Shown: piece after piece, positions 4,015-48,704 of the stretch
Position numbering within the stretch: the stretch's first letter is position 1
How the letters are laid out: every line of letters begins with the position of its first letter
The notes under the pieces: model-generated
Told to the model about the DNA's origin: nothing
The model's input: only the letters and a program-made list of their open reading frames with translations
The model's database searches: none
From: Candidatus Aenigmatarchaeota archaeon
GTDB lineage: Archaea > Aenigmatarchaeota > Aenigmatarchaeia > QMZP01 > QMZT01
Reading direction: 5' to 3'
Assembly (NCBI GenBank): GCA_043808015.1
Contig: JAZDFI010000008.1
Coordinates: 13,271-77,270, forward strand
DNA length: 64,000 nt
Position numbers and translations under genes: made by a program

Positions 4015-7000
4015 TCAAGAATCAGAACCAGATTCTGCAGTGTATTGCGCCAATTCCTTCGGCCAGCATATATCATTGAATGTTATCAGCGTGTCCTTGG
4101 TGTCCTTCTTGGTGAAGCTGTACGTCGCACTCGCTGTTATAGTGTATGTCTTTTTCGGAACTTCTAACCTGCTGATACCGTTGTAGCTGCATACGCCGTC
4201 ATTTGAAAAGCCCAGCTCAAAAATATAGGCGGAAACGTTCGCGTCTTTATTGTTCAGATCAAATTTGAAACTTCTCGTGCACGTAGGTTCGCCCAAATCC
4301 TTGGTTACGTTTAAGGACACTTTGGCATTGCTTACCGCAGTGTTTTTCGGATCCCAAGTGGTTGAAAGATTGAAACCGATATAGAATCCTGTGCTTGCCT
4401 TTATTGGCTGGTCCATTGAACCGAGATTGAGGTTGGCAGGCGAAGTTGAAAGCAGAGAAGGCTTCTGCGCTCTTACAAGCTTGTCTTCTGATGAGAGCCT
4501 CTTCCATTCCTGGTCTGAAATGAAATCTATCTGCAGATTCGACGTCGACTCGTATTCGTAAGTCACGTTAATCATGAAAGGTATGTATTTCTCCCTCACC
4601 GTATGCTCTTGGCCGCCGATAAATCCGAAATCGTTCCACGCAGTGCTTCTGAAGTCTTCGCATTCCAGTTTACCGTAAAGTAGGATTGGGATGGTTTCTT
4701 TCATTTCTATATCTTCTATATTTATTCCCATAGCCTGGTTGATGTAATTTTTATCCATTGTGAACCTGTACCATTGTTCATTGGTCTTCTCGTTCTTGGG
4801 CAGCTTTTCCATTTTGTTTGTTGGGACGGTATTATGTCCAATCTTGAAATCCCTTATAGTCGTTAGTAAATCAATTCTGACGTTCTTTGCGTGGAATTGT
4901 CCCTTGTTCTCCAGCTCCATTTCTATCAAGAAAGGCTCCCCGAGATATATTGGATGGACGTCAAACTTCCTTATCTCCAGGCCGTACGCCCCTGATATTC
5001 CCATCTCGTTTTGCGCGTATTGGCCATTCGTTATCTGTTGAGCATACCCGACCGGGTTGGTGAACAGCATCCATCCCTGGCCGAACGTGTTCTGGAACTG
5101 ACCGAACATGTCGCCCATCGGCTTGAAGAAGTCATTTACGCCATTGTGGACTGACGGCCACCACTCGCCGAAGAAGGCCACGCCCACCGACTGCTGGCCG
5201 GAGCCAAGGCCGAAAATCACGAAACCTATCACGAGTATTATTACACCCATCCATGGCCTCGTCTCTGCCGGGGTTGTGAGCCCGGCTACAAGACCGAGAA
5301 TCCAAACGGCACTGAATACTATGCCGCCTGTTCCGGAGAAGAAGCCGCCAGCTAGGTTGAAGCCACCTATGACGGCAAAAATTACCATTATCGCAACGAA
5401 TACGACTTTGTCTATCATGTCGTAGCTTGCCCCTGACGCATTGCCTATTTTACCCAGAGCCTTTGCCAGGTTGTTCTTTTCTGTTGCGACAGGCAAAACG
5501 ACGAAGAAGGCCAACGTCAGCCAGCCAAGCTCTTTCGACTGGAATATGCCTCCGCCCAAAACGCCGAATATGAAAAAGGCTATGAAAAGTGCCAGCAGAA
5601 CCCTAACGAATGAAAGGATGAAGTCGTATGGCTTTGATGGTTCGAACTCTATCGGCATCTTGAAGTAAAAGCCGAACGCAAGGAACAGCAGCAGAAGATT
5701 GGAGCCCGGGAACTGCTGCGAATAAAGGCCGCCGATGAAGCACACCACGATGCCTGCCATCGCAACGGCTTTCAGAAAAGCTATGCCAGTGTTCGTTCTG
5801 TTTTCCGTATTAGTGAAAAGGCTGCCGAAAGTAGTGAATTCCTCGGCGTCGAGCTTGTTTTCCTTTGGGTTTGGAAGTATCATGTGGAAGCCCCAGAAAA
5901 TGAATCCGATAAGATACCATATGTTGCTTGTGTAAGCCGATATGGCAATTCCAATTATGACCAGAACCAGCGAAGAAATTATGTGATTGACGCCGTGACC
6001 AGTCTTCCTGGAAAAATCCGAGATGAGTCTGGAGCCTTTCGTCGCCTTTCCCAATGCTCGACCAGGACCCTTTTCTAAAATCGTGCTATCTGGCCTTTCG
6101 CCCTTACCGTCTAGATAATCTTTTATTTGCTCTTCTCTTGACCTGTTTTTTTCTTTTGCCTGTCCTTCTACCGACCGATTTTTTATTTCCAGTTTTATTA
6201 CGTCGGGGTCTGTCGGGCTGACTTCACCAGCGCTTACGACCACGCTTGCCGTTGCACTCACTTCCCTTACCTGCGTTGAAAATTCATCGGTGTATTCCTT
6301 CGTCACAGATACTTTGTATGACTTTACGCGCACTGCCGGCTGCCATGGTATCCTGCCGGCAGGAATGTCGGGAATGAAAAACTTGCCGTTCTTGCCGGAT
6401 GTGCCTTTATAATGCGTGCCGTTGACATCAATCAAGATTATTGCACCATCAACAGGAGAGCCGTGCAGGTCGGATATAATTCCGGTAGCAGCCCCGACTG
6501 CTTTGTCCGGGTCAGCCTGTTTGTTCCCTTCATGATTATGATAATGTAATTCTACATCTACAGGGTTGTCATGCACGTCAACATTGGTATTTCTATTTTT
6601 AGTGTTGTGAGTAGTGGTTTGTGTGCTACGCTGGTAGTTCTGATAGTTGAAATTAAATCCACCCTTGCCTTTTCCTCCGCCACCGCCTCCCCCACCGGAA
6701 CCGTCGAATTTTTTCGTTTTGACTTCTTTGAGCTCTTTTTTTAGCAGGAAATGACAGCCTTCTATGGCATAATGCGGATTGAAACCAGCGTTTGCCAGAG
6801 ACTTATTAATATCGATAGCTTTCGCATCTCCGGATTGAATATATGTGGGAATATCCTGAAGGTATCTCATAAGATCGTTGTATCTGGCTATTTTTTCCTT
6901 TGTGCCCATTCCCACCCATTGAACACCCGGAAAAAATATGTCCCTTGCGATTCTCAGCGCCTGCATATCCCTTCGTACTAAAGAAACTTCGTCCGGGTTT

Positions 7001-8404: not shown

Positions 8405-9545
8405 ATGAGATTTAACATTCTGCAATATCTGCCTAAAGAAACAAAGATAATGATTGACAAAGATTTAGCGCAAATTCTATTTGCCAATAAAAAACTTTGC
8501 GAATTTTCCAGAGAATACGGAATCGGCTTAAAAAATATGAGCAGATACAGAAACTGCACCCGCTCGATTCCTATAAAATTATTTCAAAAAATAGCTCAAA
8601 ATTCTCCCATTAGAATGGAAGAATTCCAAGGAAAGATGCGAATTAAAATAAACAGAATGGGCAAGTATGTCAAAATAGGACCTGTTATAAACATTGATGA
8701 AAAGTGGGTATATATTTCGGAACTCATTAAAGGTGATGGTTATATCCCGTCTACTTACTGGTATATAGTTTTTGTTAATAAAAATGAAAATTTGATTAAT
8801 GTTGTCAAGAACTTTTTTTTTATCTTTGGGCTTGCCTGAAAAACAAATTGATATTCGAAGAAGATCAGATGCAACATTCCTTACAGTCAGATCATCTCCT
8901 ATTGCATACATCCTCAACGGAATACTTGGAGTGCCTGTTGGGAAGAAGGGCGAGATCGGTATCAAAAAGTTTGTTATGAATGATAAAATATTGTCGGTGG
9001 CGGCCGTTAGAGGGGCATTTGATGCGGAAGGTGCCGCTACATTCACCGGGTCGCGGAGGATATCCATAACGTCAAATAGTCAAACATGGCTCCTATATTT
9101 AAGTAAAATATTGAAGAATCTCGGTATAAAATCCACAATATATGAAGAACGGAAAGGTAGAAAAAAACCGATATATCGTTTGTTTGTGCAACATATTATT
9201 AACATTCGCAGGTTTTATGAAATAGTCCAACCTCAGCATACGCAAAGGAGTAGAAAACTTAGAGAAATCATTGAAACGTACAGCAAACCATATTTTGGTG
9301 TCGGGTATCTGAGGAAACCCATACTTCTTTCGATAAAATCAGGAAATACGAGAAGATCAAAAATAGCAGAAGACATATCACAAAATCCTATAACAGTTGG
9401 AAATAATATCAAATGGTTAAGAAAAAGAGGACTGATAAGGCCTTCAAAAATGGTTTATACGAACAATGGTGGCTTCTATGAATATATTTTGACAGAGATG
9501 GGGCTGAAATACCTAAGAGATGACACTCTCTCTTTTTTTGATTAG
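8405..9545 (+). pseudogene. Free-standing double-motif LAGLIDADG endonuclease-like gene with N-terminal HTH and C-terminal winged helix, interrupted by a frameshift
   Basis: ORF 8405..8839 carries motif 1 (SELIKGDGYI). ORF 8799..9545 carries motif 2 (AAVRGAFDAEGAA) and a wHTH-like tail (ITVGNNIKWLRKRGLI). The frames switch at a T9 run (8813..8821). The region is visibly AT-rich. Confidence 0.6.
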
Positions 9546-20382: not shown

Positions 20383-20547
20383 TAGCCCCGGGCGGATTCG
20401 AACCGCCGTCAACCGGTTTCTCCCGATTCGGGTTTTTGCTGAAGCTTTTTATTAAAAAGCTTCGTCCAGAGCCGGTTATCCTTAACCCCCCTCTCAAATC
20501 GCTTTAAGAAAAATTTTCAAAGGGATTGGCCACTAGACTACGGGGCT
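20383..20547 (-). tRNA. tRNA-Gln(CUG) with two introns (D-loop and canonical 37/38)
   Basis: Hand fold of the reverse complement: AGCCCCG-TA-GTCT-AGTGGCCAA-[44 nt]-GGAT-A-ACCGG-CTCTGG-[48 nt]-A-CCGGT-TGAC-GGCGG-TTCGAAT-CCGCC-CGGGGCT-A. The spliced product is 73 nt. Confidence 0.75.
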
Positions 20548-21422
20548 ATATTCAACATTCTTCTTACGTGCTTTATATTATTAAATCTTATGTTTGTTTT
20601 ATATTTTTCTATCTCCTCCTTTTTAGAGAGGAAAAATTGATCTAAAATTATTTTAGATGGAGAAAAACCAAGTGATATTAAACCACTTCTCGCGTCAAAA
20701 AGCAAATTTTTAGATTTATTTTTAAAGGATATTCTCAATAATTTTCTATCTCGTCTTGACATTCTAAATATTGATCCATCTGTATCTATCAAACCTCTTA
20801 TACATGATTTTAAAAAATTGGTATCAGTTTTTATCCATTCAGGTATTCCAACATTATTCACTTTTTTATTACCGTTTTTTAACCCAAAACTTTCCAATAT
20901 TTTTATAATTTCTTTGCTGTATACAGTTATGAATATTTCATTTTTTCTCATCTCGATTTTTGAATTTATTTTAAAAATGTCATCTACCAGAGGTTTTACA
21001 AAATTCAATAAATAATCTCTTTCTGTTTTCAAATCTCCAGCTATTTTTAACGCATATACGCCCTTTTCTCCGTTCCAGTAGAGATTACCATCGCCTAAAA
21101 TTATCCCTATGATTTCAGCCAATTCGATTGATTTTTCAGGAATCATAATTTTTTTGGTTTTACCGGGGGAATTTTTACCTCCCAGTACTTTGCCCCAATT
21201 GTCTTCCAGTTTTTTATCGATATGTTTGTAGAATTCAACTTCGGCAACCTGACACAATTTTTTAAAAACTTCTGAATTTAACGATACTTTTTCATTGAGT
21301 AAATCTATTCTCAAATAATCTTTACTAACTCCCACCATTTTACTCAATTGCAGCCATGTTTTATTTCTTTTCGCTTTCAATATAAGTTCCCTCTGCTTAC
21401 CATTTTTTAATATTACCCGCAT
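20538..21422 (-). CDS. Free-standing double-motif LAGLIDADG endonuclease-like protein with N-terminal HTH
   Basis: Motif 1 AEIIGIILGDGNLY, motif 2 IRGLIDTDGSIF. Very AT-rich coding sequence. The last 10 nt, including the TAG stop, overlap the 5' end of tRNA-Gln. Confidence 0.7.
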   Translation of the reverse strand: MRVILKNGKQRELILKAKRNKTWLQLSKMVGVSKDYLRIDLLNEKVSLNSEVFKKLCQVAEVEFYKHIDKKLEDNWGKVLGGKNSPGKTKKIMIPEKSIELAEIIGIILGDGNLYWNGEKGVYALKIAGDLKTERDYLLNFVKPLVDDIFKINSKIEMRKNEIFITVYSKEIIKILESFGLKNGNKKVNNVGIPEWIKTDTNFLKSCIRGLIDTDGSIFRMSRRDRKLLRISFKNKSKNLLFDARSGLISLGFSPSKIILDQFFLSKKEEIEKYKTNIRFNNIKHVRRMLNIAP

Positions 21423-46149: not shown

Positions 46150-46400
46150 GACGTCTTTTACCTTCAAGGATGACACCAAAATATATTGGAACTGTAAATC
46201 TTTAAAAAGACCTCCCACATATAATATATGCTCATAGATGCCACAAACTCGGCGGCGCATAACCCTATGTGCCAATGCTGACAGGCATTTATGACGAAGA
46301 TGTGAGCTTAATTACATTCAGAAAATTAAGTTTGAAGTAGGAGAACGTGAGAAAAGCAGCGAGATTTACAAGGAGTTTAAATAAATCCCGCCAATTTTTA

Positions 46401-47992
<1,592 letters not shown>

Positions 47993-48083
47993 TATATATA
48001 TCTCGCGCTCTCAACGCGTCTCCTACTTCTTCACACAGTCTTCAGCGATTGGCGCATACTCGTATGCGTCTTTCGTCAGTATT

Positions 48084-48216
48084 GGGCCGATAGATCAGCG
48101 GTAATGCGCGGGCGCAAGCCTGCGGTCGCTTGAGATCGCTCGCTTTGCAAGCGAGAGGCCGTGGGTTCAAATACGCCTTCGGCACGCCGCAGGCGATGGG
48201 AATCCCACTCGGTCCA
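48084..48216 (+). tRNA. tRNA-Ala(UGC) in the 16S-23S spacer, with two non-canonical introns (D-loop and T-loop)
   Basis: Hand fold: GGGCCGA-TA-GATC-AGCGGTAA-[~29 nt]-GATC-G-CTCGC-TTTGCAA-GCGAG-AGGCC-GTGGG-TTCAAAT-[31 nt]-CCCAC-TCGGTCC-A. The G3:U70 Ala identity pair is present. Confidence 0.75.
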
Positions 48217-48668
48217 TAAAAGCCTTTTAGAAAAAGGCTTTAGCGAAAAACGAAAGCGCGAACAATGTATATAAAGACCTGGCAACAATAATTAGTTGCT
48301 CACGCTTACGGAAAACGCAGGTGATGTCTGCGGTTTCCAAAACAATGGCTATCCAAAGCTGTTCAGAGCTGTGTCGTATCCGTGACAGGGAATGGCATTG
48401 CAGTCGGAGGGTGGCGTACGCGAGTACGATATCTGTTTTTCTGGACAAGCTAGGGCTAGCGACAACCAAATCTCAATGTCACGGATCATGCTAACCACAT
48501 TACACCGAACCGATTGCGGTTGATGCAAACCCGCTTTCGGCATATGAAGCCTTTCAGCGAACGCTGATGGGTGGATTAGAGAGGAGCGATGAATATCATA
48601 CAGTCACCTGAACGGACGCGCAAGCGCCTGTAATGACGAGGTGAACACCAATTGAGTTCCTTGATGAT

Positions 48669-48704
48669 GAAACATTGGCGAGTTGTCCTGACAAAAAGGA
48701 TCTG
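48669..48704 (+). promoter_or_regulatory. 5' arm of the 23S processing stem
   Basis: GAAACAT-TGGCGAGTTGTCC-TGACAAA-AAG-GATCTG pairs with 51817..51855. Helices of 6, 7, 13 and 7 bp are separated by 3-nt bulges (bulge-helix-bulge-like). Confidence 0.7.

Follow-up and report, generated by a model that had tools for sequence, protein, structure and literature searches.

In Haloferax and other model Euryarchaeota, the tRNA-Ala gene of the rRNA spacer is not known to be interrupted. The locus described here lies in a 64,000-nucleotide stretch of archaeal DNA, which was analysed as a whole and is called the window below. It raises the question of whether a segment of the 16S–23S spacer in which the two halves of the D arm, and likewise those of the T arm, are held apart by some 30 nucleotides can be a working tRNA-Ala(UGC) gene, and what the extra nucleotides are. 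We conclude that this is very probably a functional tRNA-Ala(UGC) gene carrying two BHB introns that would be removed by EndA and a ligase, one at position 20/21 and one at position 59/60. This reading is based on the canonical tRNA that is restored when the inserts are taken out, on BHB-compatible folds, and on conservation and covariation in relatives; we infer the splicing itself from sequence only.

Read directly from the sequence, the gene occupies 133 nt of the spacer (48084–48216, plus strand) and contains two inserts. The acceptor strands GGGCCGA (48084–90) and TCGGTCC (48209–15) include G3:U70 and are followed by A73 at 48216; U8 and A9 stand between the acceptor and the D stem, the anticodon arm CTCGC-TTTGCAA-GCGAG (48139–48155) is uninterrupted, the variable loop is AGGCC, and CCA is not encoded at the 3' end. 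The D stem (GATC 48093–96 and GATC 48134–37) encloses a normal D-loop, AGCGGTA, plus 30 extra nucleotides, while the T stem (GTGGG 48161–65 and CCCAC 48204–08) encloses TTCAAAT plus 31 extra nucleotides. Sequence alone leaves the splice junctions ambiguous, since a single nucleotide is repeated at the D insert and AAT at the T insert; with BHB geometry they are fixed at 48102/48103, 48132/48133, 48171/48172 and 48202/48203, and the gene then divides as follows.

48084..48102, plus strand: exon 1 of tRNA-Ala, positions 1–20 (acceptor 5' strand, D stem 5' strand, AGCGGT), from the sequence and in-silico splicing
48103..48132, plus strand: predicted intron 1, 30 nt, D-loop 20/21, from BHB geometry, MFE folding and orthologues
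48133..48171, plus strand: exon 2 of tRNA-Ala, positions 21–59 (D stem 3' strand, anticodon arm, variable loop, T stem 5' strand, TTCAAA)
48172..48202, plus strand: predicted intron 2, 31 nt, T-loop 59/60, from BHB geometry, register scoring and covariation
48203..48216, plus strand: exon 3 of tRNA-Ala, positions 60–73 (T60, T stem 3' strand, acceptor 3' strand, U70, A73)

When both inserts are deleted in silico, 72 nt remain, which ARAGORN calls as tRNA-Ala(tgc); the cloverleaf is perfect and includes G3:U70, A73, a 7-nt D-loop and the 7-nt T-loop TTCAAAT, and we take this mature sequence to be very close to haloarchaeal tRNA-Ala. The first-pass annotation had proposed a tRNA-Ala(UGC) in the spacer, its anticodon loop intact, and the sequence and the ARAGORN call after in-silico splicing bear this out. 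The acceptor strands with G3:U70, the 133-nt span and the uninterrupted anticodon arm read as it described them, its 31 extra nucleotides between the T-stem halves are confirmed, and its coordinates are right to within 1–2 nt. It had put the D-arm insert at about 29 nt, and here the insert is present while the count is 30. Its main proposal, that the D-loop and the T-loop each contain an intron, agrees with the in-silico splicing and also with the BHB geometry, the conservation in orthologues and the covariation presented below. A split or permuted tRNA gene is ruled out, since the three exons follow one another in the normal order, all within 133 nt; a self-splicing group I or group II intron is ruled out by the size of the inserts, only 30 and 31 nt, and no Rfam intron family matched the tRNA-Ala region at E-values up to 10.

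In the archaeal BHB (3-4-3) a central helix of 4 bp is flanked by two bulges of 3 nt each, and cutting takes place after the second nucleotide of the bulge. The D insert fits a strict 3-4-3 motif, in which AGCG (48097–100) pairs with CGCT (48127–30) between the bulges GT/A (48101–03) and TG/A (48131–33), with the slash at the predicted cut, and the 4-bp D stem is the outer helix; inside intron 1, CGCGGGC and GCCTGCG (48107–13/48118–24) form a hairpin with a GCAA cap. At the T insert the central helix is TTCA (48166–69) with TGGG (48197–200), two of its pairs being G·U, the bulges are AA/T (48170–72) and AA/T (48201–03), and the 5-bp T stem is the outer helix; the internal hairpin of intron 2 combines CGCCT/AGGCG (48174–78/48191–95), a 5-bp helix that begins after one A·A mismatch, with CGG/CCG. 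The BHB folding suggested beforehand as a check thus finds both inserts compatible with a BHB, although the MFE structure of the window T arm itself differs: TTC pairs with GAA and a 2x2 loop remains. Among eight homologues, MFE folding gives a clean 3-nt 3' bulge for the D arm in all eight, the window included, and a 3-nt 3' bulge for the T arm in four, the window not being among them, and within the window the D-intron BHB is cleaner than the T-intron BHB. Strict 3-4-3 geometry with an outer helix of at least 2 bp is matched 18 times in the GC-rich 133-nt precursor, and the outer helices of 4 and 5 bp are the longest or joint-longest among these matches. With a scan for strict geometry this unspecific, and with a T-arm MFE in the window that does not form a BHB, the motif taken alone is weak evidence and the comparative data carry the argument.

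Orthologues came from two scans. In species-representative genomes, a pattern for tRNA-Ala(UGC) with a T-loop insert matched at least 119 loci; about 80 bacterial chance matches were discarded, and at least 31 are real archaeal spacer tRNA-Ala genes with a T-loop insert. The closest among the matches listed is L096 (JAPLVC01), from a MAG labelled Candidatus Aenigmatarchaeota, with 98.3% 16S identity, 99.7% identity over the first 1436 nt of the 23S and syntenic flanking genes. Judged by this relative, the DNA of the window very probably belongs to an Aenigmatarchaeota-like member of the DPANN. A scan of metagenomes for the D-loop insert gave six distinct contigs (L120–L126, of which L125 duplicates L124), whose 16S sequences are between about 83% and about 94% identical to that of the window. 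In all seven orthologues (L096 and the six metagenome contigs), as in the duplicate locus L125, the gene lies between 16S and 23S, and both inserts are present in all seven. The spliced exons are identical to those of the window at 72 of 72 positions in five of them and at 71 of 72 in the other two (A57G). Exon 1 is identical in all seven, a figure to be read with the fact that the search pattern fixed most of exon 1; exon 3 was left unconstrained by the metagenome pattern, and its identity in 7/7 orthologues is therefore informative. Across the eight orthologous sequences the D introns measure 21–40 nt and the T introns 31–42 nt, with cores that are mostly unrelated in sequence. The 3' end of intron 1, CGCT plus the bulge, is kept in seven of the eight on quite different hairpins; in the most divergent homologue, L124, three of the four D-intron central pairs can form, or else a shifted, relaxed motif. 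The split architecture is thus found in seven other independent assemblies, with near-identical exons and diverged inserts, and such recurrence of a predicted split tRNA-Ala is far beyond chance.

These data bear on the possibility that the locus is a tRNA-like relic, never spliced and kept only as a structural or processing signal with its RNase P and RNase Z sites, while an intron-less tRNA-Ala(UGC) gene elsewhere does the decoding. Such a relic could account for the behaviour of the standard detectors: ARAGORN makes no call on the unspliced 133 nt, either by default or in its intron mode, which is for anticodon-loop introns, and in E-value mode the Rfam tRNA model, whose gathering score is 29, borrows a wrong 3' half and still gives the unspliced gene a sub-threshold 25.2 bits. 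The missed call is a limitation of the detectors and no argument against the gene. The relic would also be compatible with the non-BHB fold of the window T arm, and the search for another tRNA-Ala gene, which found none, covered the 64-kb window. It is very unlikely all the same, given that the 72 exon positions are unchanged in five orthologues down to about 83–90% 16S identity, with a single change in two others, and that the positions kept include those needed only in a mature tRNA, namely G18, G19, T54–C56, A58, the anticodon loop, G3:U70 and A73. Meanwhile the inserts diverge freely and their boundaries keep BHB pairing with compensatory changes; a relic would not retain the exact splice geometry. 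The comparison between orthologues also disposes of the idea that the two inserts pair with each other, GCCTGCGG (48118–25) with CCGCAGGC (48187–94), to make a composite structure or to be processed jointly as one substrate. In the window these are perfect 8-nt complements, which mononucleotide shuffles produce with P about 0.014. The helix is kept in none of the seven orthologues, where the longest complement is 5–6 nt (P 0.14–0.52), two G-to-A changes destroy it in L096, and its bases are used in the MFE fold of each intron's own hairpin. We find a joint structure scarcely credible and reject the 8-nt complement, which is not conserved, as a chance match.

The T intron of the two-intron gene could be followed further. 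The 38 archaeal spacer tRNA-Ala genes recovered come from Aenigmatarchaeota, Micrarchaeota, Woese-, Pace- and Nanoarchaeota and Thermoplasmata, and all genome counts given here are lower bounds. Register 59/60, with a 5-bp T stem and a central helix of 3–4 bp, is the best of the seven registers tried in 38/38. In an ungapped alignment of the T-intron junction segments (38 rows), 89.7% of the alignment cells pair, against a mean of 74.0% after shuffling, and none of 500 shuffles, which ignore relatedness, reaches this value; sliding the partners by 1–3 columns, a control that does correct for relatedness, leaves at most 59.7% paired. The central helix is paired at 93.4%, nucleotide 57 and its intron partner form A-U in 20 rows, G-C in 7 and G-U in 3, and in each of the four intron-helix pairs both partners change. 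For the D intron no covariation is visible, because the exon strand of its central helix is invariant; its support consists of the conserved 3' end, the 3' bulges in the MFE folds of all eight homologues and the differing hairpins. These differences between the inserts are the ground on which one could suppose that only one of them is spliced and that the other is retained as an expansion of the D-loop or the T-loop: the D-intron BHB of the window is cleaner than that of the T intron, and the D-intron central helix cannot show covariation. We consider this highly improbable. Both inserts combine conserved boundary geometry with diverged cores, and a retained insert of 30 nt, in whichever loop, would obstruct the elbow contacts, the nucleotides for which are invariant. 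Comparative support, from 38 genomes, is strongest for the T intron, and the D intron has the best thermodynamic BHB.

Several observations made on the scanned genomes concern other genes or other contigs. In one Micrarchaeota MAG (L069, about 4098–4240) the spacer tRNA-Ala has an insert of about 35 nt in the D-loop region besides the 59/60 intron, and in one Woesearchaeota MAG (L083) the corresponding insert is about 16 nt. The contig L090, labelled Aenigmatarchaeota, has tRNA-Ala and rRNA matches identical to those of the Thermoplasmatota contig L064, and L003, labelled Campylobacteraceae, carries an archaeal, Thermoplasmata-like rRNA operon; L090/L064 and L003 are probably mis-binned contigs in public MAGs.

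Maturation of a tRNA-Ala with two introns would proceed by analogy with known archaeal splicing. EndA would cut after 48102, 48132, 48171 and 48202, each time after the second nucleotide of a 3-nt bulge, an RtcB-type ligase would join the three exons, and the excised introns would be released, probably as circles. RNase P and RNase Z would trim the ends, and CCA would be added, a step proposed because it is not encoded. As the two tRNA BHBs are predicted on separate arms, their removal would be independent and would need no set order, and the D-loop/T-loop elbow (G18–G19 with U55–C56) could form only after both introns had been removed.

The gene is placed among further candidate endonuclease substrates. 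On the plus strand the SSU extends from 46401 to about 47992–47994, its true 3' end being GGATCACCTCC at about 47992, and is followed by tRNA-Ala (48084–48216) and by the LSU (48693–51828). Two pairs of complementary strands flank the rRNAs.

46334..46365, plus strand: 5' strand of the 16S processing stem, candidate BHB (TGAG 46348–51, bulge AAA 46352–54), from complementarity found by hand
48000..48029, plus strand: 3' strand of the 16S processing stem (CTCA 48010–13, bulge ACG 48014–16), 55 nt upstream of the tRNA
48674..48704, plus strand: 5' strand of the 23S processing stem (TGAC 48689–92, bulge AAA 48693–95), in a 31-nt inverted repeat
51817..51847, plus strand: 3' strand of the 23S processing stem (GTCA 51826–29, bulge AAA 51830–32), in the same 31-nt inverted repeat

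When the strands of the 16S stem are cofolded, both outer helices pair, with a 5x5 internal loop drawn between them and not the 3-4-3 motif that can be placed there by hand; in the cofold of the 23S stem a short central helix lies between two AAA bulges and can be shifted into a 3-4-3 form. Since BHB-compatible 16S and 23S stems flank the spacer, it is a reasonable idea that several EndA events would act on one transcript. The first-pass annotation had likewise expected several endonuclease cuts in this short segment, and the predicted BHBs of both introns together with the BHB-compatible rRNA stems agree with it. The endonuclease that splices the tRNA would probably be the one that cuts the BHBs of the 16S and 23S stems, with up to four BHB substrates per precursor. 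If the rRNA motifs are used as in Haloferax (PMC7714728), there would be four EndA substrates within about 5.5 kb of precursor, three of them between 48010 and 48700.

The operon has other features of its own. The 16S rRNA is about 1594 nt long, and the Rfam archaeal SSU match ends at 47839, about 150 nt short of the true 3' end. The helix 44 region (about 47800–47950) measures about 120 nt, against 26 expected from the bacterial model, and folds as a long branched helix (z = -3.1) that is common to L096; this enlargement looks like an expansion segment. The 23S is about 150 nt longer than the model. Between tRNA-Ala and 23S, a TATA-like box, GTATATAAAGAC, at 48262–48280 is kept in L096 and L126; it may be an internal promoter, in which case co-transcription with 16S and tRNA-Ala would not be the only source of the 23S. 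About 300 nt downstream of the 23S lies an archaeal RNase P RNA gene (52130–52466, plus strand; 56 bits in Rfam against a gathering score of 84), and its counterpart in L124 (7699–8035), in the same relative place, scores 103 bits. The motif AGCGAAAAACGAA precedes the RNase P RNA (52108–52122) and recurs after tRNA-Ala (48241–48253). Directly 3' of tRNA-Ala, at 48220–48249 on the plus strand, there is a 30-nt hairpin-plus-tail element, AAGCYTTTT-AGA/AAT-AAAAAGSYTTYAGCRAAAA, which is found again inside the canonical intron of the tRNA-Gln gene described below (20462–20433, minus strand) and in the orthologous spacers of L121 (315–344), L122 (858–887) and L123 (736–765). Its stem shows paired C/T and G/A changes among the orthologous spacers, and the element could be a protein-binding, termination or mobile module.

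Interruption is not confined to the spacer gene. A second tRNA gene with two inserts, tRNA-Gln(CUG), is found at 20547–20383 on the minus strand, with a canonical 37/38 intron of 48 nt (20465–20418) that forms a strict hBHBh' motif and a D-loop insert of 44 nt (20525–20482) that forms a relaxed BHB only. Unspliced, it is mis-called tRNA-Leu(cag) by ARAGORN; with both inserts removed, it gives a clean 73-nt tRNA-Gln. The tRNA-Cys and tRNA-Lys genes of the window have canonical introns, and all four tRNA genes found in the 64-kb window are therefore interrupted, with six inserts in total. As tRNA-Gln, tRNA-Cys and tRNA-Lys are also interrupted, the tRNA set of this genome is intron-rich. A search for EndA (PF01974) and RtcB gave no match in about 41 of the 69 candidate ORFs of the window, the rest being judged by eye. 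The tRNA-Ala motifs would be close enough to strict for any archaeal EndA, and the relaxed D-loop motif predicted in tRNA-Gln hints at a broad-specificity endonuclease. Low-GC islands at 20538–21422 (minus strand) and 8405–9545 (plus strand) have 37–40% GC against about 50% elsewhere. An ORF of LAGLIDADG type (Pfam PF14528) lies in the 20–22 kb island, immediately upstream of the tRNA-Gln gene, and the ORFs of the 8–10 kb island are LAGLIDADG-like by eye only.

The closest known parallel is Candidatus Micrarchaeum acidiphilum ARMAN-2, in which pre-tRNA-Cys(GCA) has a 59/60 intron and pre-tRNA-Pro(GGG) has introns at 53/54 and 59/60 (Fujishima et al. 2011, PMC3239211), and whose epsilon2 EndA cleaves the 59/60 intron in vitro (PMC3239211). 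Our locus shares with ARMAN-2 a DPANN host, a short 59/60 intron in the T-loop, multi-intron tRNA genes and a BHB stacked on the T stem. It differs in that ARMAN-2 belongs to the Micrarchaeota and the present host is Aenigmatarchaeota-like, in that the interrupted gene is the spacer tRNA-Ala, and in its second intron, at D-loop 20/21; furthermore, the ARMAN-2 tRNA-Cys intron forms a relaxed hBH motif, whereas both motifs predicted here are close to strict 3-4-3. In a broader comparison, DPANN EndAs with an L3 loop associate with disrupted tRNA genes (PMC5829648). The first-pass annotation had held T-loop introns to be rare outside Thermoproteales. This does not hold: the same predicted 59/60 intron is present in the spacer tRNA-Ala of at least 30 further species-level archaeal genomes labelled DPANN or Thermoplasmata, and 59/60 introns exist in ARMAN-2 and are cleaved in vitro (PMC3239211). 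With these genomes and the ARMAN-2 precedent together, T-loop introns, as far as they can be predicted, are therefore not rare in DPANN.

In Thermoproteales, multi-intron tRNA genes are common (Sugahara et al. 2007/2008; Marck & Grosjean 2003; summarised in PMC4033280 and PMC8450103). As in our locus, a tRNA there can have two or three BHB introns at non-canonical positions that include the D and T arms, and standard predictors miss such genes unless the BHB is modelled. Thermoproteales are Crenarchaeota with an (alpha-beta)2 EndA, and their rRNA spacers are normally without a tRNA; their introns look recently spread between tRNA genes, whereas here one orthologous gene has stably inherited the same two sites. 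A third parallel is Haloferax volcanii, which has the same 16S–tRNA-Ala(UGC)–23S order with BHB-capable inverted repeats around each rRNA, and in Haloferax EndA processes the rRNA BHBs in vivo (PMC7714728). Compared with Haloferax, there would be two further BHB substrates here, contributed by the tRNA and placed between those of the rRNAs.

In conclusion, the introns of this locus are of an archaeal type that is already known, 59/60 introns and multi-intron tRNAs being documented in ARMAN-2 and in Thermoproteales; the feature is real and conserved but mechanistically ordinary, and no new mechanism is revealed. In a limited literature search we found no description of the spacer tRNA-Ala as an interrupted gene, of the combination of a D-loop with a T-loop intron in the Aenigmatarchaeota-like clade, or of how widely the 59/60 intron recurs in the spacer tRNA-Ala genes of DPANN and Thermoplasmata MAGs. 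A more ambitious model, to which we give a small chance of being right, is that the 59/60 intron is an old feature, selectively kept across several DPANN phyla and some Thermoplasmata, which couples the maturation of tRNA-Ala to the EndA that releases the rRNAs. For example, the intron might leave the elbow unformed and so bar RNase P and RNase Z from the spacer for as long as EndA had yet to act on the rRNA stems; a second lock of this kind, in the D-loop, would then be an addition made by the Aenigmatarchaeota clade.

For annotation, the two-intron tRNA-Ala means that standard tRNA finders miss the gene, that the genomes of this lineage would seem to be without tRNA-Ala(UGC), and that inferences on completeness or decoding drawn from them would therefore be wrong. 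Aenigmatarchaeota-like archaea join the lineages with multi-intron tRNAs, and the predicted 59/60 intron recurs, with clear covariation, in many spacer tRNA-Ala genes of DPANN and Thermoplasmata. This recurrence provides a natural data set on the co-evolution of EndA substrate range with tRNA gene disruption, and on the coupling of tRNA splicing with rRNA processing on one precursor.
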